From Tubulanus polymorphus (taxonomy: Eukaryota > Animalia > Nemertea): a stretch of DNA of 64,000 nt. How positions within the stretch are numbered: the stretch's first letter is position 1; each line of letters starts with the position of its first letter. The notes beneath the pieces are model-generated. The model did no database searches. It was not told the DNA's origin and saw nothing but the letters and a program-made list of their open reading frames with translations. This document shows, piece by piece, positions 1 to 49,247 of this stretch. The stretch lies in NCBI RefSeq assembly GCF_964204645.1, contig NC_134027.1, forward strand, positions 13,176,485 to 13,240,484, written 5' to 3'. The position numbers were made by a program, and so were the translations under genes.

Positions 1-2
1 AA

Positions 3-10613: not shown

Positions 10614-11244
10614 AGTAATAGGGATAATAGGCTTTCAGGCCAAAGGTCGAAGGGTCGAGCCCGTAAAAAATGAAAATAACAATAATTTACAGTTGAATTA
10701 GTCGCGCACACTCCTAATTCAACTGGAAATGAACATAATTTACATGAATTTCATATATTTTAAAATCATTTATACGTTAATTACAAAAGTGTGAGTAAAG
10801 TGTGAGTAATAATTCATATTTTAACAGATTTCGAGTAAAAATATAAGTAAAATAAATGGATAACTAAAAGAGTATAAAAGTGTGAGTAAAGTGTGAGTGA
10901 AAAAGTTTATATTTTAAACATATTTCAATATTTATATTTGTATGAGTTAGATTTTTAAACGTTAAAAGTGTCAGTAAGGTGTGATTGAAATAATTCATAT
11001 TTAAAACATTGAATATTTATATTTGAATGAGTTTTAATAAAAATTTTGTTATAAAAATGAAGAAAGAAGAAGAAGAACCCAACTTTAAAATCGAAATCAA
11101 TGAAACCAATAAATCATTTTCACAGTTTAACATTAAAAATTATATTTCAGCAACAAATTTAGTGTCCGCAAGACATTATAAAATTGAAAATATTACTGTA
11201 ATTAATCAAATATTATCAAATGAAACATATTTATATGAAACATT

Positions 11245-12129: not shown

Positions 12130-12144
12130 AATATATAGAATAAA

Positions 12145-13168: not shown

Positions 13169-13819
13169 TTACTCTTTACGCCAGTTTTTATGTTTAATTG
13201 TTTCATAATGCCTTGATTTATGTGATTTTAAATATTTACCTCCACAATAACAATGCACTTTTTCATTAGGATTGAATTTTCTAAATTCATAATCTAAATT
13301 ACATTGAACTGCAATATCTTTAAATGATTTTTCATTATCTAATTCACATTGAATTCCAATATTTGATGAATTTTCATTATAGATAATTTGTTTATTATCA
13401 AAATTGAAATAATATAATTGTCTTTTTTCAATTCTTAAGTTAATAAAATCATTGTAATCTTTTGAAAGTATTATATCATCATTTCTTTCATTGAAAGGAG
13501 TTTTAAGAATATTAATTATGTTTTCATCTAAAGTTCCTTTAAAATTTAAAACTGTGTTGAACAATTTAGGATTTTTAACACCGTTATCAAAAGTATCAAT
13601 TAGTTTAGTAATTAAATATGTTTCATTTGATAATATTTGATTAATTACAGTAATATTTTCAATTTTATAATGTCTTGCGGACACTAAATTTGTTGCTGAA
13701 ATATTATTTTTAATGTTAAACTTTGAAAATGATTTATTGGTTTCATTGATTTCGATTTTAAAGTTGGGTTCTTCTTCTTCTTTCTTCATTTTTATAACAA
13801 AATTTTTATTAAAACTCAT
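13169..13819 (-). CDS. Hypothetical protein with C-terminal CxCG..H..H zinc-finger tail
   Basis: HCYCGGKYLKSHKSRHYETIKH; the 5' third lies inside the TIR and is duplicated at 11027-11233. Confidence 0.6.
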   Translation of the reverse strand: MSFNKNFVIKMKKEEEEPNFKIEINETNKSFSKFNIKNNISATNLVSARHYKIENITVINQILSNETYLITKLIDTFDNGVKNPKLFNTVLNFKGTLDENIINILKTPFNERNDDIILSKDYNDFINLRIEKRQLYYFNFDNKQIIYNENSSNIGIQCELDNEKSFKDIAVQCNLDYEFRKFNPNEKVHCYCGGKYLKSHKSRHYETIKHKNWRKE

Positions 13820-14204
13820 TCAAATATAAATATTCAATGTTTTAAATATGAATTATTTCAATCACACTTTACTGACACTTTTAATGTTTAAAAATCTAAC
13901 TCATACAAATATAAATATTGAAATATGTTTAAAATATAAACTTTTTCACTCACACTTTACTCACACTTTTATACTCTTTTAGTTATCCATTTATTTTCCT
14001 TATATTTTTACTCGAAATCTGTTAAAATATGAATTATTACTCACACTTTACTCACACTTTTGTAATTAACGTATAAATGATTTTAAAATATATGAAATTC
14101 ATGTAAATTATGTTCATTTCCAGTTGAATTAGGAGTGTGCGCGACTAATTCAACTGTAAATTATTGTTATTTTCATTTTTTACGAGCTCGACCCTTCGAC
14201 CTTT

Positions 14205-14628: not shown

Positions 14629-14857
14629 GTCGTGTACTATCGAAACATGGTATCAGTTCACTGGAGGACAAAATTAAAGCGATCCGAGAATTCAGACGAC
14701 CAGAATGTGTTTCCGAAATTCGCAGCTTTATGGGTCTGGTAAACTTCGTAGGCAAGTTTATTCCAAACTTAGCCACAACCTCTGAACCGCTCAGAAGGTT
14801 AACCAGAAAATGTGTGCCGTTTAAGTGGGAAAAGGAACAGGAGAGAGCTTTTAATTT
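14628..14857 (+). pseudogene. Ty3/Gypsy pol, part 2 (RT thumb/connection)
   Basis: GRVLSKHGI...KIKAIREF..P..VSEIRSFMGLVNFVGKFIPNLA...FKWEKEQERAF. Confidence 0.85.
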
Positions 14858-15158
14858 CACACTCCTAATTCAACTGGATATTATTGTTATTTTCATTTTT
14901 TACTCACTCGCCCCTTCAACCTTTAACCTGAAAGCCTATTACCCCTATTACTCTTAAAATAATCATATAAATGAATAACATTTAAATTGACAGATTATTC
15001 AATATAAAAGTATATATTTACAACATTATTTCAATATTCATATTTGTGTGAGGTAGATTTTTAAACATCAAAAGTGTTAGTAAAGTGTGATTGAAATAAT
15101 ACATGATATAAATCATTGAACTTCTAAAATCAATTTCGTAAAAAAATATGTATAACAA

Positions 15159-15832
15159 ATGGAATCAGAACAACCACAAGCTATCAATATTACAAATAAC
15201 ACTGGCGTCATAAATATATACTACAAGAAGTGTTCTAAATGTGAATTAGACAAATTAGCTTTAACAGAATTTAGTAAGCGTAAGATTAGCAAAGATAGTT
15301 TTCAATATTGCTGTAAAACTTGTACTAAACTATATACCAAACAATATCGAGAAGATAATAGAGAAGCTTATAATGATTATATGACAGAATATATGAGAGA
15401 AAGATATCAAACAGATCTTAATTTTAGATTAAAACAATGTTTACGGTCTAGATTAACACAATTATTCAACAAAGAAACACATTCAGAAACATTATCTAAT
15501 TTGTTGGGTTGTTCAGATGAATTTCTCAAATCATGGATAATATATCAATTCGATGATATGATAAAATGAATATAGATAATTATGGTGAATACTTTCATAT
15601 TGATCACGTGTTGCCGATTTCTAAATTTGACATGAATGATGAATACAATAAAAAACTTATTTGGAATTGGAAGAATCTAAGACCTTTAGAAAAGAAGGAA
15701 AACATAATTAAATCTAATAAACTAGATTTACAGTTATATTTAGATCAACTGGATAAAGCAAAGACATTTGTTGAATTATGGAATAGTATTTCACAGAATC
15801 AACCGCATTCTGAGGTTTTAATCAGTGGTTAG
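15159..15832 (+). pseudogene. HNH endonuclease of giant-virus type (one frameshift near 15567)
   Basis: KKCSKC...CCKTC zinc motif, LRSRL...LLGCS, FHIDHVLP...NLRPL..EN..KSNK; partial duplicate at 17236-17451. Confidence 0.75.
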
Positions 15833-16170
15833 AAAGCTGGCAATTCTATTTGAGCTTTGTATGTATATAATACATAGCTTTTGCTTACTACTAAAACATA
15901 TGTTGCCAAATATATCTTGTTTTCAATTCTAAAGAATAAATTAACTTCATCATAAAGAACATCTGTGCAGAAATAATTAGTTTGGTCGAACGTGCGCCAC
16001 GTCGGCAGTTAGAAATCAACTTTCACATACATAGTACGTACTGGATATTCTCTCTCAAAACACAGTTTACAGTTCTAAATCTAAGCGTAAGTACATATAT
16101 TATGAAGTAGGGAAACTTTTAAACATATTTAAGTACAGTAATTCATTTTCACGACATCTTTTAGATTAAA

Positions 16171-16637
16171 ATGGAATACAGAGATCAACCAGAAATTCCA
16201 AGCCAACCAACGGATGAGGAACCAGAAACGACGGATAGTGAAACACAGGAATCAATAGAAATGGAGGATAAAACTCTCGTAATTGACGAACAAACTTCAC
16301 AAAAGTTACAAGAACATTTGGACTATCATCAAGAAATGGTGAAAATTCTGAGTGATGTAATATATAATAAACAATTACCGCGCGAACTACAATTACCAAA
16401 TTACCAGCAACGCGACTTAAATTGCGGTTGGGACTCAAAGAATCGAAAACTAAGAAAATGAGTGGAGATATCAGTGCCGGTTTTGAAAGAAAACTGAGAA
16501 GAGTAGGTAGATTAATAAAATATGAAAAATTCAAAATATTAGGATTAGCATTTAGTGAAGTAGTCAGATATTTACCAGAAATTGAAGAAATGATTGGAAA
16601 CAATCCAGTAATTAAAGAATTCTGGACAAAATTATAG
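16171..16637 (+). CDS. Hypothetical protein, acidic N-terminus (probably one frameshifted gene)
   Basis: Overlapping ORFs 16171-16461 and 16422-16637; TAAAATG start. Confidence 0.45.
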
Positions 16638-16713
16638 ATTATAACACTGAAGGTCTTTGTAATATAGATATCAAAATGTAATCTCGATTGTATATATCTG
16701 TTTTAATATTGTA

Positions 16714-17028
16714 TTGTTTACTGTTAACTAAGTATTGCGCAATAACCGGTCCGATTGAACCGCTTTTCTATTGTTCTCCATTGTTCTACTATTGATCGTT
16801 GTTAATGGCGGCGGTTGTTCTGTATTGATTGTTTACTGTTAACTGTGTATTGCGCAATAACCGGTCCGATTGGACCGCATTTCTATTGTTCTCCATTGTT
16901 CTACTATTGATCGTTGTTAATGGCGGCGGTTGTTCTGTATTGATTGTTTACTGTTAACTGTGTATTGCGCAATAACCGGTCCGATTGGACCGCATTTCTA
17001 TTGTTCTCCATTGTTCTACTATTGATCG
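16714..17028. repeat. 115-bp tandem repeat x ~2.7 with internal palindromes
   Basis: AATAACCGGT at 16741, 16856 and 16971; TATTGCGCAATA and CGGTCC-GATT-GGACCG in each unit. Confidence 0.9.
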
Positions 17029-17759
17029 CTAAAATTTACATAATAAATATATGTGTTTATGAAATAATATTTCCACCAGTCGTTTCGTTGAATTGATTTT
17101 CAGTTGAGGATTTATTATCGAGGATCCGAAATGACTTATCAAAAGCAGCGAGGAATGAAAAAGGATGACGTTAGTCGAAGAAATGGAAGAGGATTCTAAA
17201 ATATTAATAAATTTTATTAAAAATTTGATTTATAAATGGAAAGGAATGATGAATACAATAAGAAACTTATTTGGAATTTGAAAAATTTAAGACCTCTTGA
17301 AAAGAAAGAAAATAAAATCAAATCTAATAAAATAGATTTACAGTTATATTTAGAACAGTTAACAAAGGCAAAGAAATTTATTGATCAATGGAACAATGAT
17401 CCAAATAATGAACAATATGTTGAGGAATTTGATATCAAGGATCCGAAATGACTTATCTGGACAGTTATAATTACTGCTTCTAATAGATAAACAAAAGTAG
17501 TGAGATATCAAATAGAATTCAAATAAAATATATTAAAAAAACAATAACGTCAACTGCTAGTGAATTCTATTATATTTTTAATATTTTCTTTTCAAAAAGA
17601 GAATACTTTATATTTTGAATAGATTCAAATAGAAATTCTTTAAATTCAAATAGCTAGTATCAGTAGTCAATACTAGAATTCTTTAGCTTTCACTATCTAG
17701 TATCATTTGAAGAATACTTATAATATTTTTCTTATTAAATTTCTCTAATATAATTGTCA

Positions 17760-18726
17760 AAGAAATCTAATAAGAATAGTATTGATATTGAAAAAACATT
17801 AGATGATTTAGGTATTAGTGATAATAAGGATCCAGTTGTTTTACTAATTCTATTCAAGTTAATAACAATATTGATTATGAATACTATTTATATTGTAAAC
17901 ACCATCTTGAGTTACTAATTGCTGGCGGGAAATCTAAGGATTTCTTGGGAAAAATAATAACTTTTCAAGAATTAGATGCTATGAAACCCGAGAAAGTAAT
18001 AAAATATTTTTAGATTTATGAAGAAGCAAGATTAGCCCGAATAAATGATTCTATTTCAGATGGTATTGTCAAATGTTATTCTAAGTTATGTAACCAGTTA
18101 ATACCAATTAATGATGAAAATAAATCATATAGTGATTTAAAAAATGACTATTTAGTTATGACTGAATTACAAAAATGGGTCGGTTATGCTTCATTCCAAT
18201 TAGGATCTGTTATGACAATTTCTACTGGTGTCATAACATTTTCGAATATCAAGCCTATGGAATATAAATCAGGTAAGAACGAAACAGATGTACTACAACC
18301 AAACGTCGAAACAGAAAATGAATCAGAACAAAAATTAACTAAAATAAATGAGTGATGATGTTAAGAAAAAGGCTAGATCTGAGAAACAAATAAAATGGGC
18401 AACAGAATTAGGTATCTGCAGAATTAGAATCTGCAGAATTAAAAAAAGCTAAGAAAAAGAAATTAACTGATATAAATGAATCACAGACTTTATCTGATAT
18501 TAATTCAAATAATAATCCATCTGATTCTTCTAATGCTGGAAGTAATTATAAATTATATATTACAATTGGATTAGTAACAGTTATTATATTATCTGGTGTA
18601 ATATATAAATCAAAATTCAAATCTGATGATAAAGATGATTCCAATGACAATAAACCTATCATACCAGAAAATAAGTCAAATCATAAAACCATTGAAACTA
18701 AATCTAAATTATTATTAATGGATTAA
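17760..18726 (+). pseudogene. Decayed homologs of the element-1 genes 2280-2885 and 2818-3186
   Basis: IEKTLDDLGI, YEYYLYCKH.LE.LIA.GK and KKARSEKQIKW motifs with frameshifts and stops. Confidence 0.75.
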
Positions 18727-19824
18727 AATAAGAGGAAAAAAGAACAATATTTAAGAGAGTTATATTATAACCCAGAAAGTGAAGCATCATATTCTAACGT
18801 TTCAGAATTATGGAATAAAATTAAATCTGATAATGAAAATGGTAATATAAAATATAGTGAACTAAGGTTATGGTTACAAAATCAACCAACATATCAAATC
18901 CACAAGAAAATGGATAAAACTTATTTAACAAGAAAAGTTATGGTTTCATATATTGATCAACAATGGCAAGCAGATCTAATTGACATGAAGAACTTAGAAG
19001 AATACAACAAAGGATATTTCTGGATATTAAATGTTATAGACATATTCAGTCGATACGCATGGTCAATTCCAATCAAAAATAAAACTGGTATAGAAGTTAC
19101 AAATGCTTTTAAATCAATATTCAAAGAAGATATTCCAGATATGATACAATTTGATGAAGGTAAGGAATTTTATAACAAACATTTCAAAAAAGCTATTATC
19201 TGATAACGATGTAAAATATTTTTCAACACATTCAGATAAAAAAGCATCTATTATAGAAAGATTTAATGAAACATTGAAAACTAGAATGTGGAAATATTTT
19301 ACTGCTAATGAAACATATAAATATATCGATGTGTTAGATGATTTAGTGAAAGGTTATAATAATTCTAAACATAGTTCTATAAATATGAAACCTATACAAG
19401 CTAGAAAAGAAGATAATTCAGAAATAGTTTGGAATAATTTATATGGCGCGTTTGTTACACATGATTTCGGTGAACCTAAATTTAAAATTGGACAACACGT
19501 AAGAATATCTAAATATAGAAAAACATTTTATAAAGGTTATACTCCTAATTTTACTGAAGAAATATTCAAGATTAAAAAGATAATATTAACTAAACCATTT
19601 GTTTATAAACTAGAAGATCTAAAAGATGAAGAAATATTAGGTTATTTCTATGAACAAGAATTATCACTTGTACCAAATCCAGATGAAATAGAATACAAAA
19701 TAGAAAAAGTATTGAAATCAAAAACTCTTAAAGGAAAAAAGTATTCTTTGGTGAAATATAAAGGATACGATGATAAATTTAATGAATGGATTTGATTTTA
19801 TCTAGTAAAATTAAAAGAATAAAT
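18718..19824 (+). pseudogene. Polinton integrase with chromodomain (frameshifted)
   Basis: EQYLRELYYNPES, WQADLIDM, IDIFSRY, QFDEGKEF, IERFNETL; frameshift near 19190. Confidence 0.9.
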
Positions 19825-20434
19825 GAATAAAGATTTATTTATATTTGAACCGCATAATATGTTAGTTACTGGTGTAACCAATTGTGGTAAAACACATTTC
19901 ATATTAGATTTGTTAGAAACTGTTTATAAGAATCATTTTGATAACATAATATTATTTTGTCCTACTTATGAAATGAATAAAACATATAATAGAGATATAG
20001 TTGAGATGAAAAAGTTTATTATATTAAATCCTAAAACAGTAAAAGAAAATTTAGATAATTGTATAAAGGTAGCAATTGATACTTATAAAGGATCAAATAC
20101 ATTATTCATTATAGATGATTGTGCTAATCTACATGATTCAAAAGTGAGAGAAAGTGAGTTATGTTATCTAGCTTTCTCTGGGAGACATTTTGGGATAACA
20201 ACATGGGTCTTAAATCAAAAATATAATTCAATTGTTAAAGACTTTAGGGAGAATATAAGACTTCTAGTTTTATTCTACAATAAAGATAGAAAATCTATGC
20301 AACAATCATTGGAAGAAAATCAAATTATACCTACTGAATTACATGATGAATATATGAATAAATTAAAGAATAATAAAGGTTCAAAATTATTACTGAGACT
20401 ACAATTTCCATATGAATATAAATTTATAAAATAA
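19823..20434 (+). CDS. A32/FtsK-like packaging ATPase; intact
   Basis: GVTNCGKT, LFIIDD; very similar to 1386-1994. Confidence 0.9.
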   Translation: MNKDLFIFEPHNMLVTGVTNCGKTHFILDLLETVYKNHFDNIILFCPTYEMNKTYNRDIVEMKKFIILNPKTVKENLDNCIKVAIDTYKGSNTLFIIDDCANLHDSKVRESELCYLAFSGRHFGITTWVLNQKYNSIVKDFRENIRLLVLFYNKDRKSMQQSLEENQIIPTELHDEYMNKLKNNKGSKLLLRLQFPYEYKFIK

Positions 20435-20447
20435 CTATTTGTATACC

Positions 20448-20800
20448 TATGTATTAGATACCCTAATACCGGATACCCCATTAGATACCCTAATACCTGA
20501 TACCCTATTAGATACCTTGAATACTTAAAACCCCCTTTATTAAAATAAATATTATTTATACAATTTTCAACCAATTTATTTTTATTTTTTCAACTAATAT
20601 ATGAATAAGTTTGAAAATAATAAAGGTTATTTATTATTACTGAGGTTTCAATATAAATTTTAAAAAGAAATATAATTTAAGGTATTTTCAAATAATATGT
20701 ATTAGATATGTATTAGATATGTATCAGATACCCTATTAGATACCTTAAATACTTAAAACCCCTTTTTTATTTACTATTATTTTATACAATTTTCAACTAA
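20448..20800. repeat. TATTAGATACCC-type short repeats between convergent genes
   Basis: Repeated motif; the block recurs inverted at ~11570-11830 in the mini-element. Confidence 0.75.
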
Positions 20801-20829
20801 TATTATTATTTGAGTTAAATATAATTAAT

Positions 20830-21683
20830 ATCTTAATCACTTTCATCATCACTCTCCAATTCACTATCAGACCCTAACAATTTATTCAAATTCTCTACAT
20901 AATTTTCTTGTTCAAATTCTCTATTATTTTTATACTTATTCTTCACTTTTTTACCGCATCATCAATAGTTGTTTCATTGTTATGCTTATTCATCCAATCA
21001 AATTTATCATTATTTTATACTTTATGTTTCATAGAATCTTTATTAGTGTTTGCTCCTAATATTTCATTTACAGTGTTTGATCCTAATATTTCATTAGCAT
21101 CGGTTAGATCTAATTCATCTTTATTAGGTGTTGCTAATAATAAATCTTCATATATTTTTTCACCATTTACTTTTTGATTTGAAACAAACTTTGTAACATA
21201 TCTAAATGGGTGTTCTATAAATTCTTTTAAAACAACACGTTCTATAAAATTATTTATATGTACCCTTGTATTCATATGTTTATTCCAATTTGATGTAGCG
21301 TTTGAAAATTCACTTTTACAATATCCACAATAATTTCTATTTTCACTAACATTTCATATTATTTCATTATTAGATGTAGAAGGTATTACATTATTAGATG
21401 TAGTAGGTATTACATTATTAGATGTAGAAGGTATTACATTATTAGATGTAGTAGGTATTACATTATTAGATGTAGAAGGTATTACATTATTATCAATTAC
21501 ATTACTTAAATTATCAACAACACTACTTTTATTATTATCGATTTCTATTAGTTTAGTTTTATAGATTTTGAAAATAGGATCAAATATCAAAGCTATATTA
21601 CAAGGTATTACATAATATAAACCACCATTATTTTCATGTGTATCGATGTATGGAATATGTTTATATACTTTACCTCCTTCCAT
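20830..21683 (-). pseudogene. Hypothetical gene with NNVIP(S/T)TS 24-bp repeats, frameshifted
   Basis: ORFs 21354-21683 and 21015-21275; about 5 repeat units at 21368-21490. Confidence 0.5.
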
Positions 21684-21715
21684 TTATTATATACATTTTT
21701 ATTAAAGTTTAAATT

Positions 21716-22962
21716 TTAATACATAACACTATTTAATTGAGAATTTACAATATTTAATTGCGCGTCAGATATAATATAAATGTGCATTTTAAAATTTTTG
21801 ATTCCTTTATTCTTTGTCATGAATAATTGTATTCCATCTTTTGTGTTCTGTAATTTTTTTCCAGAACCATGTAATGAATTATCCTCTGTTGTTCTAAAAT
21901 CTAACCATAATGCATATTTATTACCGGTATGATAATCAATTGATTAATATTACAATTTTCAGATGATTTTACTTTTTCATCCATAAAATGTTTTCTAATT
22001 TCTGGCCATTGATCAATCATTCTCATTCCTTGACAAAATATTTTATTTGCTATTCCTTCGATAGTTATTTCTACTTTTGTTATTTCAGGATTATAATAAT
22101 TATCAACATTTATTGCGCTATTAGAATATGTTGCAATGGTAAAAAATATCAATATACCTTTAATAGATCTTCTTGGGAAGTTAATATTCTCATTAATTAT
22201 TTCGTCATTTGCATTAATAGTTACGGTTTTAAATTTATCAATATAATCAGATAATAATGAAAATCCTTGATTGTATTGAGTTTGAATTATACTTGCAATA
22301 TTTTCATCAGTTACTGTATCATATTCTAAACATATATTCGATAATTTATAACTCATAACTTTATTAACGCTAGATATTACAATTTCATTTACAGGAGCAA
22401 ATGTTATTTCGAATATAACGTCTTCTTGAATTGCGTATTTATATAAAGGTGCATTGTTATTTATCAATTCAAAGTCTAATGGAAGTTTATATTTGCTTCC
22501 ATATATACTTTTTATCAATTTATCTATAGAATTAGTTAATATTGCATTATGTGCTTCTGATCTTAATTTATTTTGGTTTTCTGATTGGATTCCTTGAAAT
22601 ATCATATTATTTCTATTTTCTTTAGTTAACCATAAATCTTTATAATGCATAAATAAATTATAATCATCTAATGAGAAAACTGTTTCTGGACCAATCTTTA
22701 TAGTTAATTTTTTCATCAAATATCTTCCAACATTATCGACAACATAATTATTATTATTACCGGTTACTTTTATATCGGCTGATAAATAAATACTATTTGG
22801 AACATAAAAAGTATTTTGTGTTAATCGAGGGATTCTAACATATAAAGTTTCATCAGGATTAATATTAGAAGGGTTATGAGTAATTATATGATGTGATCTT
22901 TCTGCTTTAATAGCATTAGATATTCTATGATTCTTAGAAGGATTGATATAACTCCCACTCAT
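21716..22962 (-). CDS. Putative major capsid protein (double jelly-roll), one frameshift near 21930
   Basis: ~415 codons, beta-rich, at the end of the structural cluster; C-terminus matches 3-227; the fold is inferred from size and context. Confidence 0.65.
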
Positions 22963-22982
22963 TTATTTAACAAAAAAATTAA

Positions 22983-24456
22983 TTATTTATTTTTTGATAT
23001 CATATTTACTAATCCAAAAATAATTGCACTTACAACTGTAATTAAAAATAAAATAATACGTTCAGCAGCAAAGTTAATAATGTTTCCTGCAGATTTCAAT
23101 ATGAAACCAACAATTGATGCAATAATTCCTGGTAATGCTGCAGCAGATTTTTTAGATAGTTCCCATAAATATTTTGCTAATTTCTTTAAACCATCCTCAA
23201 CTTTATCTTGTATAGAATTATTATCTGGGGGTTTATCTGGTTTATTTGGAGTAGGAGTAGATTTCAGTGAATTTGATATAGCTAAACCAATTGTTGTAAA
23301 TAACATAGTTACAGCTGTTAGAATTGAAAGAATTGTTATTCCTTCAAACTTAAACAATAATTTTATTCTATCTTTTAGTGATATGTCAGAATTTGGTTTT
23401 AGTATTAACTCTTTAACAACAACTTTTAATCTATCAATACAATAATCATATGATTTTAATAATAATTTCATTTTTTCTTTCTGAAATTCTATGTTATATT
23501 CTAAATCATCAATTTCTTTTTCTAAATATGCATTTCTTAAAATATGCATTTTTTTTAAATTCAATGTCTTCAATAACTATAAATTCTCTATCTAATTTTA
23601 ATTGTTCTAATTCTTTTCTGGTGTCAAATAATTTATTTTCTAAAGGTTTAATTTTATTATATCTTATATGTTTTTCGCGCGCAATTTTATCAGCTTCATC
23701 TCGTATACTTATTATTTCTCTAATTGTTTTTTTAGAAAACATACTTAAAACTTCTATTTCTTGATCTGTTGAATCAAGTAATCCCTTCGGTAAAAGTTTT
23801 TCAGTTTGAACTTCAGTGTTTGATTTAAGTTTACTAGTTTTGGAAGTTTTATTCTGTTCAGAAGTTGTTTCTGTTTCTGGATTTTCTTTGATTGTTTCAA
23901 ATAATTTATTAATTCTTTGTTTAAATACTCTTTTATTTTGATTTATTTCTTCTTGTGTTACATCTTCTATTTCATTACTATTTCTTATTCTCTTAATTCT
24001 AGATGAGTCAAACTTAAGCAAAGTTGATATTGCTATTATTTTTTCTTCTTTTTTATTAGAGATATTAATATAATAATCCGAATCATCTTTCAACCTATAA
24101 TAATATTCACCATCTAAAAACTTTAATTCTTTTACTAAAAGTCTGGCGCCTCTATCATTTATATTATATCCAGAATCTTTAAATACATCTTGAAACTTAT
24201 ACATAAATTCATAATTTTCTATATTTTCTCTTTCTAAACCTGGGTCTAAATTTTCAATAGGTATTCTCGATCTAGTTCTTCTATCATGTTCTTCTGTTGA
24301 TGGGGCTTTAGAACCACTCTCTGCTAAATTAGAATTATATGCTGATTCATCATCATTATCAATATTATTATCAGCAGTCATATAATCATCATCAATATAT
24401 CCTTCATTATTATTTCCCATGCCTTCCATTTCATAATCTTCTACACCTTCTGTCAT
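22983..24456 (-). CDS. Large coiled-coil protein with C-terminal transmembrane segments (frameshift near 23550)
   Basis: Acidic N-terminus, coiled coil, GITILSILTAVTMLFTTIGLAI, LPGIIASIVGFIL and IILFLITVVSAIIFGLV. Confidence 0.65.
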
Positions 24457-24469
24457 TTACATAATAAAA

Positions 24470-25791
24470 AAATTTAAAATATAATATTCCTCCGATTACA
24501 ATTCCTATACAAGTTAAAGCTAATTTAGTATTTTCATGGGATTTATTATCATCATTTAGTTTAATTATATCATGTTGAATATTATCAGTTTTTATATCTT
24601 CTGATGTATTGTAATCTTTTATTTTAGAATCATTATTTAATTCAATATTATTAGTTTTAGTTTCTGTTGATTGAATGTTTTTTTATTTTTTTCACCTTCC
24701 ATTAATTTTGGAGCAGTGGTTATCTTTTTATTTATATCATTTAATCCAAATGAATTATTTATTGTTGCAGTTTTAATTAGATTATTATAACCAATTATAT
24801 TTCCCATCTTTAATACTAAATCAATAGAAATAATTAATAGATTAGGGCCTATACAATAATTTAATCTAATATGTGATTTATCTAAATGATTTTGATATCT
24901 TACAATGTTTTCCGGAATCGATCTATTTTTATCATTATGAATTGAATCTTCAAATAATACTTTGAATTGTTTCTGCGCATCGAATGAAGTGTTATCATTT
25001 CCAATTATTGGGGATCTTGTTTCAACTTGCGCGCCTAAAATACAAATTAAATAATTTCTAATAGATTGATTTATTCTTTGTATACCAGCTTTAGTAAAAC
25101 CTTCACTATTTTCTAAAATGAAATTAACCCAACCATTATTGTTTTGTTGTTGTATATTATTATAATATTTTGGTAATTCATTCCAATTTAGTGTTCTTAT
25201 ATCTGAATTTGTCATTATTTTTCCAAATTCTTTAGTATATAATATTCCTAATCCACCCATTGTTCCAATTTTTGCTCTAAAATCTTTATTTGAATTAATA
25301 TTAAATTCATTACATATTTTATAAAACTTAGAAAAATTAATATTATTATTCAATTCTTTAAAATATTTTGAACCTGGTAAAGGACATTCTAATTCATCTA
25401 ATATTAATTTTATTTGAAAATAAGTATGAAATCTAAAAAGTGATAACATCAATGGTAAACTTGGTTTGTTTAAATGATCATTCCAACTAATTCCACATCC
25501 TGTTGTTGCGCAATAAACAGCAAAATTTAATTGGTTCTGCCAATACTTCATATTAGATTTTAATAACCATTGTTTTGCCTCATTTAAATTTTTGAAATTA
25601 ATTGTATACACATGAAATATATTTTCCATCTTTACATGAAAATTATTACTTTCAGTAACATAAATATATAAATCAATTAATGAATCTAAAACTTCATTTC
25701 TATATGTAATATCTTTATTAAAATCTATTGCTGGAATATTATATTTAATTGATTTATTATATTGGAAAGCTTTTGGAAAACTATCTGCCAT
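24470..25791 (-). CDS. Conserved viral protein with C-terminal membrane anchor (frameshift near 24670)
   Basis: YWQNQLNFAVYCATTGCGIS...; continuation reads HENTKLALTCIGIVIGGILYF. Confidence 0.6.
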
Positions 25792-25932
25792 TTATATAAT
25801 TAAAAAATTAATAATTTATTAATTCTTTTAATAATTTATCTTGTTCTTCAACTGTTATATGACCATTTAAATTGCCGATCCTATAATAGTTATAACTGCA
25901 GAAGCCATTTATTTAGTAAAATAATTATGTAT

Positions 25933-26154
25933 TTATATGGGAGGAATATATTTTTGTTTTTCTAAATAATCAATAGTTAAATTAGATAAAGTAACAGCTA
26001 ATGTTAATTTTAAAATATCATTGATATCAAATCTATCAACATTAACACTTCCCATTTTAAATACTTTTTTTAATACCATTGAATAACCAACAGTTCCAAC
26101 TGATAGTAATGCTCCATTATATAATCCAGTTATTATCCACTTATTATCACTCAT
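25933..26154 (-). CDS. Small hydrophobic/membrane protein
   Basis: 73 aa with two hydrophobic helices; T-tract/TAAATG start. Confidence 0.6.
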   Translation of the reverse strand: MSDNKWIITGLYNGALLSVGTVGYSMVLKKVFKMGSVNVDRFDINDILKLTLAVTLSNLTIDYLEKQKYIPPI

Positions 26155-26526
26155 TTATTTATCAAAAAAATTACTATCTTCAAAATATTGAGTTATCTTA
26201 TTTACGATTAATTCAACATTTATTTCATTACTAGTTTCATTTGTATATATTTCAATTATTATTTTTTTAATAACATCGACGATAAAATCTTCATCTAATT
26301 CATAAAATCTTAAAGATTCTCTAATTAAATTAGTAATCTTTTCTACATTTAAAGTTTCTTTATCTATTGTTGTTTCAAACTCAAATGTTGTTTCATTTGA
26401 AAATGCAATATTTTTAATCGTGTAATTACATCATTAACGTTAAATTTCATTTCTTTCTCACGTTTTAAATCAAATCCAAAACATAAACTCGGTCCAACAG
26501 TTATATTCATTTATATAGTGAAAAAA

Positions 26527-27286
26527 TTACTCTTTACATCTTATAACTAATTCATATATCACAGGAAAGTTAATTAAATCAATTAAATAACCATTATGAT
26601 TTCTTATTTCTAATTTAAAATTATTAAAATGTGGAATACAAGGTTTGAAATCACATTCAGCTAAATTATAATTTATTTGAGTTCCAAATTGTTTAACATT
26701 TTCTAGCGGTAAAATATTTAGTAAACTAGAACTACAAATTGTTTCTTTAATTGCTTGGAAAGTTTTTGTAGGCTCGATTAAATTGCAATAAATATAAAAG
26801 TGTGTAAAAGGTATTATATTTGAATTACCATCTACGTTTCCTGTAACAGTATCTGGTACAATTCCTAACAGTTTTGCTATAGGTTTTTTTACCATAAATG
26901 CATGTTGACTTTCATCATATACCTTTATTTTAATTTTATTTGTGCCTCATTTTTTATAAATCTAATTAAAAATTTATCATCTCTTCTAATTTTCAACCGT
27001 GCTCTACGATTAATTTCTTGAGCTCATGTTTCTAAATTATATAATCCTGGTTTTAAAATTAGATGAAACCATTTATCTACATTTCTAATATGAATTAAAA
27101 CAGTATTATCGTCAATAGTTTTATCCGATATATTATAAAAAGAATTACATAAACTTATATTTACTAATTTCAAATCTACATAATTCTTAAATTCTCTATC
27201 TAACTGAACTAGTAAATTATGAGATTTATAATTTGTAACTTTTCTTGAATCAACAAATTATAACTGTATTCTTTTAATTCCGCCAT
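26527..27286 (-). pseudogene. Putative minor capsid (penton, single jelly-roll) protein, frameshifted
   Basis: LCNSFYNIS..., LKPGLYN, FYIYCNLI, LLNILPL, FKLEIRNHNGYLIDLINFPVIYELVIR pattern resembling Polinton/virophage minor capsid proteins. Confidence 0.55.
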
Positions 27287-27300
27287 TTATTTTACATATT

Positions 27301-27654
27301 TTATTCGAAATCTATTTCATGGTGCCCTTTTTCATTCTTACCTTTGTATACGAAATAGAAATCTCCAGAACATAATTCTTCTAGATCTTCACTTGATAAT
27401 CTATGAAATCTATCTGGTAAATATGTTCTGAATTTATATGTATTTCCTTTTAATCCTTCATATTCTAAGTGTATAACTAATTTATCTCCATATTTGTTAG
27501 TAACTGTATCAATATTTGTAATTAGATATTTCTTATGGATTGTTAATTCTTTTAACTTCTTAAATTTATAATCTACTGATTTGACATTTGAAGTATCTTT
27601 TATTCTATCTAGAAATGATTTGTTGTTCTCACTGTGTGCTTGTTTACTCTCCAT
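27301..27654 (-). CDS. Small conserved viral protein (possible ssDNA-binding protein)
   Basis: Homolog of 4191-4517; immediately downstream of pPolB. Confidence 0.65.
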   Translation of the reverse strand: MESKQAHSENNKSFLDRIKDTSNVKSVDYKFKKLKELTIHKKYLITNIDTVTNKYGDKLVIHLEYEGLKGNTYKFRTYLPDRFHRLSSEDLEELCSGDFYFVYKGKNEKGHHEIDFE

Positions 27655-27683
27655 TTTAATAACATATTTTTATTAAAATTTGA

Positions 27684-30600
27684 TTAACACGTTAGAATTC
27701 TTTTCATTATCTCGTTCTCTTTTGTTTCTTCTCTTTTAAATTTTAAGTTTTCATCTAAATTACAACCATAAGCAACTGTATGAATTCCATCATCCAGAAT
27801 ATATCTTTTATCATCAAATGGGTTTAGACTTATCTTTTCAATTTCTTCAATAAACATTTCATGATCTTCAGATCTTAAACATCTCATTTTATGTTTTCTA
27901 ACTTCTTCATTGAATATACAATTGATGTAATCTTTGAAATGAATATTCTTTTCTACTACACTTTTGGTTATTCCTTTTAACTTTTTAACTTCATGTTCTT
28001 TAGTTTTATATGAATACATTTTAGATACACCTATGAACTCTATCATTTCTTCACCACCTAATTCATCCTTGAATTTACCGGGAACTTTTTATCATCATTG
28101 CTAAACAATTCATGATCTTTAGGATAATTACTGAAATCAAAATGATGTTTTAATGTTTTTAAATCATCAGTTATGTTATCAGTTTTTATCTTTAATATGT
28201 AAGAATCTGTATCAAAGTATAGAATTTCTATATGTTTTTCTCCAAAAAGTGGTTGTAATACGTTATAATAGAATTCATACATCAATAGCTTTGATATTTC
28301 TAAAACTGAAGCACCAACATAAATTGGTTTATTAAATTTCATAGAAGTTCTTCTCAATTTAACTGCGGCTAAATTTTCATCAAATATTCTGTTACCAATG
28401 AACTTAGGATATGATTGTAAATGCCTTATCCTTTTACCATTACTAACTAACTCAATATTATTTCTATTTCTAATATTTTCACAAGTCTTACCATAGAATG
28501 CATTATTCATTAACTTGAAGAAATCTTTCTCGAAATCAGTTTTAGCTTCAGTTCTCTGTTTGGTGTTAAAATCTATATATTTTTCTAACCACTTAGATTG
28601 ACTAAATGAAATATATCTATGTACTTTTTTTAGAACCATTCCTTGTTTTAGATAAAACTTTAACATTCTATAATGTACTACATAATTATATTTATCTTCT
28701 TGAGTTACCATTAACTTTTCTGTATGAATATGATTTTCGGGTATAATTCTTTTTTGATAATTTGATAATTCTTCATGAGTTACAGTTTTATGTTCGGGAC
28801 AGTATGCTAGATTTCTAGATTTAAATTTAATATGTTCAGGATATTCTAAATCTACAACAAAGAAGTAACCAGTATCTGAATCATCTGCAATATCTAGAAT
28901 TCTTTTCTTCCAATAAAATTTATCATTATTTTCATTCTGTAAAACTTCAGTTAATTCAAATACTCTATAAGGTTGTGGTTCCATCATTGCCCAACCATAC
29001 AAATTATTTGCATCTATATATAATAACTTATATCCGGGGTTATCATTTACATTGAAATATCTATCACCTAATACACCTGAAACTCCTCCTCTTATAGATT
29101 TTTCAAATAATAGTAATTGATCTATATTTGTTAACAAATCCATTTTTATATCTGTAAATTTTAATCCACAATCCCATTTTAAACCTGATTTGAATAACAA
29201 TGACAAGGATCAATGTTAAAATATTTTAGGTTTACATCTCTAAACCTTTCGAATATATCAGTTAACAATAATACATCTGATTTTAGATATGAATCTACTA
29301 ATTGCCCATGATTTTCTATTTTGAAATGATTCCAAATATTCAATGTTCTATTATATACTTCATCTTTAACATATTCATTTTTTAATTCATCATAGAATTG
29401 TTCTTTTATTAATTCGGTTATGTTAAAATCATTATGATTTTTATAGAAAGAATATGGAATTGCGCCTTTATATCTCATTAATTGGAAATCATCATTATTT
29501 GGGTAGTGTTGTTTTAATATTTTCAATTCATCATCAACTAATGATTTTGATAAGTTATCTAATGAACTATTTAAAAATCTATATGAATCTATAAATCTTA
29601 GGCAACCAAATTGGAATGATATATAATTCGCAGATGTTTTAGCTAACATTCTAAATTTATAAGTTGGTATTTTATCTTTTGATCTATTTGAATTTAATCT
29701 TTCTATTTCATTACTGATTTCTTCTATTTTATGGCATAACTGTTTGATAAATAATTGTGCATCATATCCTGATAGATTATGAAATATAACTGGTACAAAG
29801 TTAATTTTCTTAGCTTGTAAGTTACAATTCTCATGTGCAGCGCCTCTAAACTTTCCGTTCAAATGATCATGGTCTCTCACTTTTTTATCTTTATAATTAA
29901 ATATCTTTTCACAATAATAACATTTATCTGAAAACACAAATTCTTCTTTATCTTCTTCTGTCATAATTATTTCTTTATTTGTATTCAATAATTTACTAAA
30001 TCTAATTTCATATTCAATTAATAAGTCACAAAAATGATTGATAACATTTTCATTTCTATAATCATAATATTCACTTTCAATTAGTTCTGGATAATCAGAT
30101 TTAATATATAACCCGAAAGCAGCAGCTGATTGATGAATCTTTTTAATTGTATTTGTTTTTGGTGGTTCATCTGAAAAATCATTTTCATTAGAATTTAATT
30201 TCTTTCTTTTATAATATATTTCTTTTCTATCTTGATCAGTTAATTCTTTATTTAATGATTCAAAATCTCCATATATTACAAATGGTACTTAATTTTTGTA
30301 ATCATATTTTTTGAATTCTAATATTTTATCCTTTTCATTTGGTAAAACTAATTTCCAATAATCATGATTTTCACATAATTGTTTATGATTTAATAATGTA
30401 ATTTCATTACTGAATTTATGTAAACATTTTCTACATAGATATATTTTATTATGGTGATCACTTTCTGTTCTAAAGAATAAATCTATTTGTTTAATCCACA
30501 TATAATGATTCTCATAATATAGTATATCTATAACATCATTTGAATCATAATCTTTTGATAGATATAAAGGTTCTAATGTATAATGTTTTATGTTGTTACC

Positions 30601-31654
30601 TTTTGTATTTGGTAATTTGATTAAATCAAATACATAATTATTATCTCTTTCAATCTTTGGGATCTTTTTAATTATAACAGGATACTTATCTATCTTATAA
30701 TTATTTTCAAATGGTTTATAATGAGTTAATCTACAAATATTATAAGTTGCAGGATGTAAACAACTTATTATAGCCCATAGAAAACATTTATCATCTTCAT
30801 TTTGTACATTTATTACAGCATTAGTTTTAAATGGTAGTTTGATATAACTCGATGCTTCGATATCTGGTTCTTTATAATATGATACATTATTTTCATCAAT
30901 TGGTTTTGATTTAGTTAACTTATTATATTTTGTGTTATAAACATGTAAAGTCATAAATATTATTTCATCAAATATTATAACATTTATCTAATTTATCATC
31001 TATATGTTGTTTAGATATAATATGTTGTGAATGAGAATTTATATTATATATTGGTTTATCTTCAGATTTCATAAACTTTACTTTAGAAGATATACTTATT
31101 TTAGGATATTCAACATCTGTAATTATTTTTATTATTTCTTTCATATTTTCTAAATGTTTTTTATTTTCTTCTAATGTTTTTCCTTTATGAAATTTAAACT
31201 CGATAGCTGCTGGACCAATATCACTTTTAAATGCTTCTGTTATCTCTATATCTTTTTTATTATCTAATGAATTAATATAATTTCTTACATCTTCCATGTA
31301 TGGTCTTTTATTGTTTAATTTATTTTTTATGCTTTTAATTGTCTTCTGTTTCTTATCATTATCTTTATCAAAATAATCTTCACCTAAAAAAACATTATTC
31401 ATATTTCTAATATGACTTTTAGATTTTAAATGTTCTTTATAATATCTTTTATCACTGAATGATTGATTACATGTATCACATTTGTATATTTCTTTTTCAT
31501 TCTTTAATTCATCTAATTTAGATTCTAATATATCATCTTTATATTCTAGTTTCAATTTATTCTCTAAATGTGTTTTAGTTTTATTGTGTCTTGCTTTTTG
31601 GGATTTATCTATATTGATATTACATGTTGGACAGTAGTACTTATTTGCTTCCAT
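27684..31654 (-). pseudogene. Protein-primed family B DNA polymerase (pPolB) with N-terminal C2H2 fingers and Endonuclease VII-like insert; at least 5 frame breaks
   Basis: YGDFES, FHNLSGYD, RDHDHLNGKFRGAAHENCN, YIDANNLYGWAM, KLMNNAFYGK, YFDTDS. Confidence 0.93.
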
Positions 31655-31877
31655 TTTAATACTAAATTTTTTTTTTAAATTGATTTTAGAAGTTCAATGA
31701 TTTATATCATGTATTATTTCAATCACACTTTACTAACACTTTTAATGTTTAAAAACCTAACTCATACAAATATGAATATTGAAATAATGTTTAAAATATA
31801 TCTATCTATATTGAATAATCTGTCAATTTAAATGTTATTTATGTAAATTATGTTTATATATATATGATTATTTTAAG

Positions 31878-32065
31878 AGTAATAGGGGTAATAGGCTTTC
31901 AGGTTAAAGGTTGAAGGGGCGAGTGAGTAAAAAATGAAAATAACAATTATTTACAGTTGAATTAGGAGTGTGCGCGACTAATTCAACTGTAAATTATTGT
32001 TATTTTCATTTTTTACGAGCTCGACCCTTCGACCTTTGATCTGAAAGCCTATTACCCCTATTACT
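31878..32065. repeat. Terminal imperfect palindrome (88-bp arms, 12-nt loop)
   Basis: 31878-31965 pairs with 31978-32065 with 8 mismatches. Confidence 0.9.
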
Positions 32066-33451
32066 ATTATGTTAGATTCATAGTTTCACATGCTTGTCCG
32101 GTAGCTCTGAGTCTAGATGAGATTGATCATGAGTCGTCGGTTGATCCAGAACTCATTCAGTTGAAAAAACAGGTACTCAAAAATGATTGGTCAGGGGATT
32201 GTCCATCAGGTTATAATATAAGTATATTCGTGTGTTTACAGTAACATTCTGTTGAGAGGTAATAGAATATTGTAGTTCCTAGAACGTTACAACAGAGATG
32301 TGTCGAGTTGGCTCATGAAGGGCATCAGGGAATAGTAAAATGTAAATCCAGGCTCAGGTCTAAGGTATGGTGGCTCAGGATTTACAAAGCTATTGAAAAG
32401 CGGTGTAATACCTGTCATGGTTGCCAGCTTACAGGTGACTTACCTTCTGCTGAGCCCATAGTTAATACTGAATTCCCAACCGCTCCTTGGACTCACATAG
32501 CAGTCGATCTTCTGGGTCCTATGCCAACCGGTGAAAGTATATTTGTCGCTGTGGATTATTATAGTAGGTACATTGAACTGGATATTATGTATTCAACTAA
32601 AACTGATAAAATTCGTAACAGGTTAGATAGGATGTTCTCGGTTCATGGTTATCCAGAGTTTATGAAGGCCGATAATGGTCCTCAGTTTATTTCGGTTGAG
32701 TTTGATAATTATATGTTTAGAAACGGTATCAAACGTAAGGGTACAATTCCTCTGTGGCCTCAAGCGAATGGAGAAGTGGAGCGTCAGAACAGATCGCTTC
32801 TAAAGGCTATGAGAATCGCACACTCCGAGGGTAAAAACTGGCGTGAAGAGGTTTATACATTCTTGCTGGCCTATAGGTCAACACCTCATTCAACCACTGG
32901 TCAAAGCCCTGCTATGCTTATGTTTAATAGAGAAAACTGTACCAAAATTCCTGATTTTAGTGTAAGCCATTATAACACTGTTAGTTCTAGCTTTAGTTCT
33001 AGTATAGCCAGAGATAATGATAATTATAATAAGGCTGGAGGTAAAGAATACTCAGAGAAAAACGGACGGCTACAGTGTCTGATATTCAGTATGGTGATTT
33101 TGTATTGTTAAAGCAGGAACCTTCAAACAAATTATCTACAAGGTTTGAACCAGTTCCATATAAAGTAACCGATCGTTTTGGGTCACAAGTTACTATTGAA
33201 TCACCACATGGTGTAAGGTATAAACGTAACGTCTCGTTCGTAAAAAGGTTTCATACTGATGACAGTAGTTTTGAATCCGACCCTGCACCAAAATTAAATG
33301 TAAACAGGGAAGTCGTTCAGAGTAAAACTCCAGAAACAGATGCGACACCTATGGGTGAATCTATTCTGCATCCGGCTGTAAGCAACACGTCCGGTAGTAC
33401 CAATACAGAGGCTGTACCATTGTCTACTGTAGGGGACGAGGGTTCTGTGAG
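32066..33451 (+). pseudogene. Ty3/Gypsy pol, part 3 (integrase)
   Basis: AHEGHQG...C..C zinc finger, IAVDLLGP, VDYYSRY, DNGPQF, NGEVERQNR, YRSTPHSTTG. Confidence 0.9.
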
Positions 33452-33851
33452 CGGTGTTGTCATATCGCGGAAAGACGGAATTTCTTCATTTTTACTATAA
33501 ATAGTAAACGGGTTTTCCCACGGGGATACCCACTGTCGGACAGGGCATCGGACCATGGTTTTCAACACCGGGAATTAGTATTTGATAATTTATTATATCG
33601 CCAGTCAACAACTTAACGATACTGTTCCAAATAATGGAGAACCTAGGCAATACGTGCTTTGCGAATTCAGTGATACAGAGTATCGCTGCATTAACTGAAG
33701 GAATACAAATCGATGGTACGTAAACGTAGGATTTGTGATGACACCATGGGTCATTCTCCAGGACTCATTTCCGAGTTAAGATTTGACTCTGGTCTCTGGA
33801 TTTAAAACATTGGAAATGAATTGATTCTAAGTAACTGAGAGTTAACTCACA
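33452..33851 (+). repeat. ~400-bp repeat (inverted copy at 14205-14628)
   Basis: Direct match; no polypurine tract or TSD, so not called an LTR. Confidence 0.8.
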
Positions 33852-36789: not shown

Positions 36790-37640
36790 AAGGAATTATG
36801 ATATACATCTCGAATAAAAAAAACACCAACAAAATTTAAGTAAAAATATTTTAGGAACAGAATATTTTGATGATAAATCTCAACAAGTAAAAAAATCTAT
36901 TGAAAAAAACGAAATCTATTTCAAATAAATCTCATATGGAAAATGTTCGAAATTATATCGATTCATTAGAAATAAAAGAAAAAATTGAAATTTTAGAAAC
37001 ATTACGTAGTAAAATTGGTCCTGCAGCTAAAATATTTAGATATTTAAAGGGACAAGAATAGAAGATTATAGTAAAGTTATTGAAATAATGGAAAAAATCA
37101 TGGATTTTGTAACATATGTTGAATATCCAAAAATTACCGGAAATATGAATCATTATACAAAATTGACCAATACCCAGTAACTATAAAAATGATTCCTCAA
37201 ATAGAAAAAGTTAATGATTTAAAAATAAATGTATTCGAATTAATGCAATTACCGAAGACAAAAGGTAAAAATATTAACGATTATACATTAGAAGCTTTGC
37301 ATTTAACAAAACATTATGATGATGGAAATGTTAAAGATTTATTATACCATTAAAAAGATGAAAATGAACATAATATGTGGTTAAAACAGATTTATCTTTC
37401 AGAACAGAAAGTGATCACCATTGTAAAATTTATCAATGTAGAAATGTTTATCTAAAATTATGACAGAAAAAGCATTACTAAAACATAAAGGGTTATGTGA
37501 TAATAAAGGTCTTGTAAATTAATAATGCCAACAGAAAGAGACTATAAATTAAAATTTACTAATCATAGATTTAAAAATATAGTTCCATTCGTAATTTACG
37601 GGGATTTTGAATCATTGAATAAAGAATTAACTGATAAAGA
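36790..37640 (+). pseudogene. pPolB relic of element 3, 5' part
   Basis: HMENVRNYIDSLE, HNMWLKQI, VPFVIYGDFESLNKELTDK. Confidence 0.85.
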
Positions 37641-37792
37641 ACACATTATTATTCGAAAATGGAATTATTAAATTCGTGGAATCAGTTGTAAAGCTGAAAA
37701 AAGAAATACGGTTATGATTGGGCCAGGATAAAGACAAAGCAATAAGTAACCTGGCAGACTAGCTTGAGGCAAATGTATGATTCATCAGTGGA

Positions 37793-46308: not shown

Positions 46309-46990
46309 TAAAGATAGAAAAGAAATATATAACAACAAGCAATTATTAAAATCAATGGATTAAGGAAATGAAGATACAATTCAAGATCCACCAATTATAA
46401 ACACAATTAAGAAAGTTCATCAAAGAGCTGCCGCATATGGAATTTGCATGAAATCAAATTATGCCGAATTATATGAAGTCAATATATTTCTTTTTGAGGT
46501 GAAGATAAAGAAAATGAATTTTCTAATAAAAATATTGAATCAGAAAGTGATTTTGCACAATTATTAAACAAAAATGAAAAAAATAGTTATGACAAAAGAA
46601 GATGAAGTTCATTTTAATTATGCAACTCATTCCTGTTATTGTGAAAAGCGATTTTACTCATTTGATAGAAAATTTGAAGATCACGATCATTTAAATTCAA
46701 TATATCGCGGAGCTGCTCATGAAGATTGTAATTTACAAGCTAAAAAAGTTACTTTCGTGTCAATATTAATTCATAATTTTTCAGGATATGATACTCATTT
46801 ATTTATAAAACTATTAACAGGAATAGGTGAGATTAATCAAGAAATAGAAGAATATAACGCTATTAATGATACATAAATGCCAACTTATAAATTACAAATG
46901 TTAGCTAAACATCAGAAAATTATATTTCGTTTCAATTTGGATGTCTAAGATTTTTAGATTCTTATAGATTTTTAGCAAGTTCATTAAATA
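46309..46990 (+). pseudogene. pPolB relic of element 3, 3' part
   Basis: NTIKKVHQRAAAYG, DHDHLNSIYRGAAHEDCNL, HNFSGYD, YISFQFGCLRFLDSYRFL. Confidence 0.88.
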
Positions 46991-49112: not shown

Positions 49113-49247
49113 AATAAAAACCCACCGTAGATTTGTAGAAATAGTTTATTTCCTGACGGTTTCGAGCTTAAAACTAAACTTCAGAGTTTTAACCTCAAAA
49201 TAGTTTGGAAATAAACTGTTTCTACAAATCTACGGTGGGTTTTTATT
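49113..49247. repeat. ~40-bp inverted repeat enclosing a degenerate hammerhead (Penelope end relic)
   Basis: AATAAAAACCCACCGTAGATTTGTAGAAA and its reverse complement; minus strand CUGAAG...GCUCGAAACCGUCAGG. Confidence 0.55.

Follow-up and report, generated by a model that had tools for sequence, protein, structure and literature searches.

An imperfect terminal hairpin shared across a Polinton family of the nemertean Tubulanus polymorphus

How an integrated Polinton exits its host site and restarts replication is a standing question, and in its available passages a July 2026 preprint leaves undecided whether terminal palindromes are functional or accidental (10.64898/2026.07.28.741278). The question is raised by 64,000 nucleotides of Tubulanus polymorphus DNA (NC_134027.1, positions 13,176,485 to 13,240,484; hereafter the window, meaning this whole stretch), where a decayed Polinton, element 2 (14858-32065), ends in a long hairpin. 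The first-pass annotation described the right terminus of this element as an 88-bp imperfect hairpin, and recomputation returned every part of that description: two arms of 88 nt each, a 12-nt loop, GAGTGTGCGCGA, and 8 mismatches (Table 1). Pairing of the arms reaches its exact limit at the AGT/ACT ends, that is, in register with base 1 of the element, with no pairing just beyond. As DNA, the 188-nt inverted repeat folds at -83.1 kcal/mol (z = -21), a stability matched by 0 of 200 shuffles. An Rfam scan of the hairpin gave four generic hairpin matches and no family, the best scoring 37.9 bits against a threshold of 190, and the exact 25-nt end motif had 0 matches in viral contigs.

Two related Polinton-type elements lie in window positions 9463-33500, about 800 bp apart in Gypsy pol coordinates. 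The second, element 1 (10614-14204), measures 3.6 kb and is a non-autonomous relative of element 2. AT flanks the intact end of each, and in both the partner end, facing the other element, is broken, at a cost of about 120 and 460 bp of Gypsy sequence; the figure of ~460 bp of Gypsy pol gone at the left joint of element 2 takes a distant Gypsy as its ruler. One of the two broken ends lies in the hairpin loop, the left end of element 2 starting at terminal inverted repeat (TIR) position 94, as had been claimed; the other lies at position 29. An inverted copy of 33476-33850 sits between the elements, and a 24-bp tandem array occupies 12350-13266 within element 1. The recurrence of the inner arm at 14866-14953 is present, with 7 of the 8 inner alleles in common, and since this is the other TIR of element 2 it is no independent copy. 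The outer-arm recurrence stands at 10614-10701, whereas the second proposed copy is present only from TIR position 29 (14145-14204).

The TIR of element 2 is ~410 nt long with 5'-AG ends, as in Polintons, and its left and right copies show 88% identity over 328 nt. Those of element 1 are 99% identical over 592 nt, and at both ends they hold a 12-bp stem only, the rest of the inner arm being absent. The 99% identity of its TIRs, in the absence of a long arm, makes it probable that element 1 has gone through at least one round of copying without that arm. The point where this identity ends is a fold-back element (11245-11362); it and an unrelated one at 49109-49251, of ~119 and 143 nt, are probably MITEs. 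Older Polinton remnants, with integrase, ATPase and pPolB pieces, occupy 1-4763, 36927-37641 and 46310-46991 and match element 2 at 70-76% DNA identity; their surroundings yielded no terminus bearing the hairpin end motif.

Table 1. Positions in the window of elements 1 and 2, their termini and genes, and the Gypsy host sequence.
Feature	Position	Strand	Remarks
Left TIR of element 1	10614..11233	+	Outer arm, loop, 12-bp stem only
Right TIR of element 1	13613..14204	-	First 28 nt absent; same 12-bp stem
Left TIR of element 2	14858..15167	+	Broken in loop; contains inner arm 14866-14953
Free-standing HNH/EndoVII-like nuclease gene	15159..15829	+	Left end of element 2; frameshift near 15560
RVE integrase with chromodomain	18727..19795	+	PF00665 E 6.5e-8; frameshift near 19190
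A32-type packaging ATPase	19823..20434	+	Pox_A32 E 1.5e-11
Likely DJR capsid	21719..22962	-	Atlas features only, scores 0.96-0.97; recognition value under tool threshold
pPolB, five pieces	27684..31654	-	Frameshifts and one in-frame stop
pPolB regions			Zinc fingers; terminal-protein and vOTU; exonuclease with EndoVII-like insert (~29779-29991); polymerase
Right TIR of element 2, remainder	31640..31877	-	Subterminal repeats, reaching pPolB start codon at 31654
Inner arm	31878..31965	+	Inverted terminal 88 nt; begins exactly at AGT end motif; AG precedes
3-nt internal mismatch	31924..31926 vs 32017-32019	+	T-G and tandem G-A/A-G; no variant listed on either side
Loop, 12 nt	31966..31977	+	TIR positions 89-100
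Outer arm	31978..32065	+	Terminates at true right end (ACT) of element 2
Gypsy pol, integrase part, host site of element 2	32066..33500	+	Further Gypsy pieces 9463-10613, 14625-14857

The gene content places element 2 among the Polinton/Maverick elements (Polintoviricetes), with pPolB, an RVE integrase, TIRs, a packaging ATPase with a DJR capsid, and the terminal-protein (TP) and vOTU regions. Among members of the Atlas clusters matched by the capsid, 10-23% carry Capsid_N, Capsid_NCLDV or DJR-like families. Motif and tblastn searches gave no adenain protease in element 2, itself a decayed copy; this protease is common in Polintons and absent from the definition quoted from PMC11296320. The pPolB matches PF03175 at E 3.4e-5, under the curated cut-off, and has 3,327 relatives at E <= 1e-30, several of them named DNA-directed DNA polymerase; the named relatives come from insects and a hydrozoan, at 32-39% identity. 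The Endonuclease VII match noted in pPolB proved real (PF02945, E 1.3e-5, over the curated cut-off), and the insert of element 2 keeps the DHDH...H..CN motif; phmmer against PDB returned no relevant match for it. The free-standing HNH/EndoVII-like gene matches phrog_1035 at E 5.8e-12 in an intact homologue at the related locus L033 and at 1.3e-4 in the window piece. Both terminal genes of element 2 start at the inner TIR edge, and the L033 homologue directly follows pPolB. In 32 ORFs scanned with Pfam, no HUH/Rep nickase was found; two HNH/EndoVII-type nucleases are present instead.

The TP and vOTU regions were tested on the 78%-identical pPolB of L033, using an AlphaFold model of its N-terminal 462 residues (87 sequences, pLDDT 77). 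Model residues 89-206 resembled a Y-family little-finger domain (Z 8.5, rmsd 3.0, 104 aligned) and residues 217-357 a viral OTU (Z 7.9, rmsd 3.6, 107 aligned), Z values near 8 being middling and in the range that the tool calls common; the best Foldseek E was 1.6e-3. A little-finger domain followed by vOTU is the pattern of the polinton terminal-protein and vOTU domains (PMC11071308, section 8). On this predicted structure, protein priming appears to be kept by the polymerase of this close relative.

The first-pass annotation had allowed that other copies might carry only one arm, in which case the hairpin would be a one-off insertion or an artefact. Raw reads speak against this. Five of 11 listed sequencing runs contain part of the stretch; four runs were mapped to 31201-32400, and run X6, raw Illumina data from a different study under the same species label, was mapped to 31821-32120 with ~12% of the run. 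In X6, depth at the inner-arm start reaches about 1,260 reads: it is 1,261 at 31881-31890, 1,045 in the loop and 3,073 at 32051-32060, an inner-start to outer-end ratio of ~0.41, and it falls to 6-11 in the flank beyond the hairpin across mappings (6 in X6). At 32065, 1,858 X6 reads terminate and continue into mixed flanks (agreement 0.34), 534 more do so one base later, and 1,557 terminate there in the four-run mapping; a shared stop with mixed continuation makes 32065 the true end at many insertion sites. Among 6,153 reads only 122 could be placed twice, and interior base 31868 is reached by 951 (31888 by 1,192), which leaves cross-mapping as no explanation for the arms seen across the family. 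If the flank is taken as single-copy, roughly 115-210 ends carry a recognisable inner arm among 280-510 ends overall; the copies are piles of unphased 150-nt reads from one run, and related copies are not independent. Read groups of 708 and 866 depart from the alignment at 32003 and 32009 and may or may not carry an inner arm. Across 31201-32065 in X6, the coding depth of ~570-1,150 and outer-arm depth of ~3,000 against the flank mark a very abundant family made up of many subfamilies, distinguished by their counts of subterminal repeat units. The terminal hairpin is a trait across this family, not a one-off.

To see how far the trait extends, 112 related loci were scanned for inverted repeats (at least 3 sharing a contig; 80 of 581 retained from the metagenome scan). 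None of the 112 showed an AG-terminal hairpin; only L008, L031 and L048 have long TIR-like repeats, and only L048 has clear ends. These are plain AGTAGT ends (z 0.21). L048:1-15051 is a complete-looking Polinton, AGTAGT...ACTACT, with telomere-like TTAGGG runs in its TIR. An 87-bp inverted repeat upstream of pPolB in L003 was considered as support and set aside, having the opposite polarity (ACTACT...AGTAGT) and no flanking TIR; its end letters recur in another hairpin, one that breaks up pPolB in L107, and both are taken as inserted MITEs. The two (L003:4657-4840 and L107:3325-3473) lie in Polinton-like contigs and have ACTACTATA...TATAGTAGT ends, the reverse of Polinton polarity. They possibly form a MITE family, the alternative being a junction of joined ends. 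The L003 hairpin contains internal sub-hairpins and stands between divergent pPolB and a small Cys-rich gene, which is weakly like the left-end gene of element 2 (33% over 43 aa).

To examine whether the arms vary together, variants within the reads were compared between them. Among the variants listed (the best 40 of 68, the remainder lying under about a 13% share, judging from an apparent ranking by share), 15 fall in the inner arm and 14 in the outer arm. Seven of these 15 inner variants have a complementary outer change (31888/32055, 31893/32050, 31902/32041, 31944/31999, 31953/31990, 31954/31989 and 31956/31987), where 100,000 position shuffles gave a mean of 1.1 and a maximum of 6. Another four restore pairing with the outer arm of the window copy, and four (31896, 31897, 31916 and 31936) are without a listed partner. 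Length is mirrored too: the A-run and its T-run partner are each one base longer, in 76 and 384 reads. Of the 234 reads that span the 11 skip-joints listed, 156 belong to three exactly symmetric joints, where another short stem replaces the skipped letters and brings the total stem to ~56, 70 or 71 bp around a similar loop. In 10 of the 12 fills listed, the closed loop is 10 nt long and has GAG first and CGA last, as in the loop of the window copy.

The asymmetry between the arms had been described as mostly not decay, and this is borne out by the reads. Only the mismatch at 31948 is private to the window copy (97% of reads pair there); those at 31903, 31905 and 31919 are polymorphic, with the pairing allele at 26-36% on the inner arm, and the four at 31912 and 31924-31926 have no variant listed on either arm. 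All seven non-private mismatches are G-T or G-A on the + strand, which is the 3'-terminal strand, including a tandem GA/AG, and the same seven are A-C or C-T on the other strand (two-sided p 0.016, post hoc). The + strand folds better by 8.8 kcal/mol (-81.5 vs -72.7), with 2 of 256 strand assignments equally extreme. Unmatched transitions in the reads run four towards G-T and one towards A-C, and the overall change spectrum favours neither strand (A>G 11, T>C 8, C>T 9, G>A 10). The confinement of tolerated mismatches to one strand favours a single-strand 3' fold-back over a cruciform. The terminal hairpin is probably kept as a structure.

What such a structure would do can be approached through the replication of protein-primed DNA. 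Our preferred explanation, held tentatively and at somewhat under an even chance, is that the hairpin serves as a local panhandle, which would guard the 3' end, allow its repair and offer it for protein priming. During single-stranded replication, the strand with the terminal 3' end would fold back on its own inner copy of the terminal 88 nt. The folded end would shield the 3' terminus, the inner copy could template repair of lost end bases, and the fold would offer a duplex origin to the protein-primed polymerase. We infer that the fold forms in vivo, that selection rather than passive re-copying maintains it, and each of the three roles. The observations to be explained are the structure itself, its base-1 register, its many copies, the mirrored arms and the one-strand bias, together with the TP/vOTU folds of the close relative. 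A local panhandle would predict one folding strand, mirrored arms, free stem length and no flip/flop. It would also make the long arm dispensable when the two TIRs pair well, as could be the case in element 1 (99%) vs element 2 (88%), a comparison of one element each. The conserved AG inside the inner arm may be a record of two extra bases of the free genome that were clipped by the integrase. Two-base clipping is borrowed here from retroviral 3' processing.

This reading has precedents. A panhandle model exists for protein-primed ends (PMC11886824), and TP-capped Streptomyces telomeres are repaired by 3' fold-back (PMC5449611). In the standard Polinton model, as given second-hand in PMC4196379, a single strand pairs its two TIRs in an end-to-end racket and pPolB primes with protein. 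Against a local panhandle, quasi-palindrome template switching yields mirrored changes without selection (PMC3820800). In addition, the inner-arm start draws only ~41% as many reads as the outer-arm end, the long arm is missing from element 1 although its TIRs are 99% identical, and a paired 3'-OH is a ready DNA primer, which points to self-priming instead.

The first competing explanation, possible but on balance unlikely, is a neutral fold-back duplication, in which a nascent strand folded at a short stem and was copied once to the free end, leaving a functionless hairpin; quasi-palindrome template switching or mismatch repair would then have preserved the likeness of its arms. G-A and G-T pairs are poorly repaired and could persist passively. 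Neutral duplication accounts for the base-1 register as well as the mirrored changes, and such mutations are known (PMC3820800). Accident is also the alternative named in the virophage preprint, which cites Kapitonov and Jurka 2006 for it (10.64898/2026.07.28.741278). Element 1 manages without the long arm at both ends, and L048, the sole related Polinton with clear ends, is hairpin-free (z 0.21). However, a similar loop is kept while the adjacent stem is replaced and stem length shifts, a one-strand bias is unexpected from duplex DNA, and a long inverted repeat is retained at some 115-210 ends, taking the flank as single-copy.

Two further explanations draw on parvoviruses. Rather unlikely is a protein-primed Polinton lineage with added parvovirus-like ends, in which the 3' fold-back would prime or launch replication from the integrated state and one of the two HNH/EndoVII nucleases would cut at the hairpin base, exactly on the element-host boundary; if true, it would supply the missing Polinton excision step and constitute a hybrid adenovirus/parvovirus replication mode. 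Parvovirus-like self-priming, in which the paired 3'-OH would prime the second strand and the EndoVII-like insert or the free HNH nuclease would nick the closed end, is improbable. As in parvoviruses, the terminal hairpin is imperfect with a paired 3' end; the folding strand is the 3'-terminal one with its last base paired, and each of the two TIRs adjoins the start of one HNH/EndoVII-type nuclease. Self-priming has also been proposed for palindrome-ended virophages and PLVs (10.64898/2026.07.28.741278). Simple hairpin transfer, however, would give both flip and flop, so that roughly half of the copies would have the entire 188 nt inverted, and the search for flip/flop loop orientations that the first-pass annotation had advised found no sign of them among the listed X6 and four-run rows, a weak negative given 150-nt reads and a listing of 40 of 68 variant rows. 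Among the variants listed for interior-anchored reads, outer alleles at 31912 and 31924-31926 were absent. Beyond 32065 the reads run into mixed sequence instead of the element interior, and the four opposite-strand joints listed are each supported by 5-7 reads. Because certain parvoviruses have hairpins in a single orientation (PMC8242256), missing flip/flop is still compatible with self-priming. Also against it, the L033 relative keeps its terminal-protein and vOTU folds, and no HUH/Rep gene occurs among the 32 scanned ORFs.

Cruciform excision, as first suggested for this terminus, is decidedly doubtful. The integrated end would extrude a four-way junction that the EndoVII-like domain of pPolB would cut, freeing the element. 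The stem base coincides exactly with the element-host boundary, either diagonal cut would restore an unflipped end, the break at the left end of element 2 falls in the loop, next to a flank that lacks ~460 bp, and the insert retains its DHDH...H..CN motif. A cruciform requires both strands to fold, however, and the seven non-private mismatches are tolerated on one strand only, the other having seven A-C/C-T mismatches and folding 8.8 kcal/mol worse. The same bias argues against poxvirus-type folding of both strands, only integrated copies having been seen. Moreover, only one of the two broken ends is in a loop, the other being at position 29. The proposed cutting of the hairpin by the insert is likewise weakened by the relatives: the EndoVII motif occurs in 100 of 120 pPolB relatives listed (a stricter pattern in 54 of 112 loci), and the insert is present at two loci that show no terminal hairpin. 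L048 has the insert, its first Asp changed to His, and L008 has an intact motif and a TIR with no long hairpin in 650 nt past the shared TIR, its end not being located. The insert is thus not tied to the hairpin, and on this thin evidence it is a clade trait rather than a hairpin partner. Nuclease inserts in pPolB are already published (10.1101/2023.08.22.554363; PMC11071308), and PMC11071308 reads them as homing-endonuclease or intein relics. Finally, a one-off tandem insertion, nested mini-element or assembly artefact is hardly credible: long inverted repeats are prone to mis-assembly, but the inner arm stands at both ends of element 2 and in ~1,200 raw reads from another study, most of them interior-anchored.

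Among known systems, poxvirus telomeres are imperfect terminal hairpins of 100-200 nt with a mismatch bubble. Parvovirus terminal hairpins are of the same kind, again 100-200 nt, imperfect and with a mismatch bubble (PMC8242256). The Polinton hairpin differs from both in that no Rep/NS1 was found in the scanned ORFs, the copies seen are integrated, open and double-stranded, and flip/flop gave no sign. In the adenovirus/PRD1 panhandle, a duplex origin for protein priming is likewise rebuilt by the displaced strand, with homology restored; there two distant ITRs pair, whereas here each end could self-pair (PMC11886824). TP-capped Streptomyces telomeres are an analogue in working, with protein-primed ends, 3' strand fold-back, G-A pairs and end repair. 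They differ in being bacterial, with several short palindromes, an internal origin and Tap/Tpg end patching, and homology is not claimed (PMC5449611). In gene content, the Polintons/Mavericks with Beta-type pPolB (the adintovirus grouping) share the TP and vOTU domains, RVE integrase, A32 ATPase, DJR capsid, long TIRs, 5'-AG ends and endonuclease insert in pPolB (10.1101/697771; PMC11071308). They depart from element 2 in the end-to-end TIR racket of their standard model (second-hand, PMC4196379), in the plain AGTAGT ends of L048 and in the adenain that was not found here.

A literature search on Polinton hairpins or palindromes gave one relevant report, the preprint 10.64898/2026.07.28.741278; Kapitonov and Jurka 2006 may mention palindromic ends. 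Hairpin-ended Polintons do not appear in the passages available from PMC11296320, PMC6431247, PMC11131425, PMC4061559, PMC12220804, 10.1101/2023.08.22.554363 and 10.1101/697771, and the hairpins in those of 10.1101/2022.05.25.493380 are protein beta-hairpins only. The preprint describes terminal palindromes in Halocafeteria seosinensis, in endogenous virophage subtypes 1, 2, 5 and 6 and PLV subtype 4, within the TIRs and adjoining the TSD; it proposes hairpin priming, gives accident as the alternative and calls for tests. The statement of the first-pass annotation that canonical Polintons have simple TIRs no longer covers every case, given these palindromes in protist virophages and PLVs. Both systems have palindromes in TIRs at the boundary of RVE-integrated dsDNA elements. 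The Halocafeteria palindromes, 52 nt in the example given, go preferentially with non-pPolB replication genes, whereas the Polinton hairpin is 188 nt, imperfect and accompanied by pPolB. Compared with the passages available, mirrored arms, variable stem length and a one-strand mismatch bias are reported only here, and the co-variation of the arms is the first evidence of its kind found for such terminal palindromes. With hundreds of varied ends, a sister element that has no long arm, a mismatch bias that points to the folding strand and apparent protein priming, the function of these ends becomes testable with synthetic DNA and purified domains. Terminal palindromes were already known; a longer, imperfect, co-varying and strand-biased hairpin in a pPolB Polinton is new.
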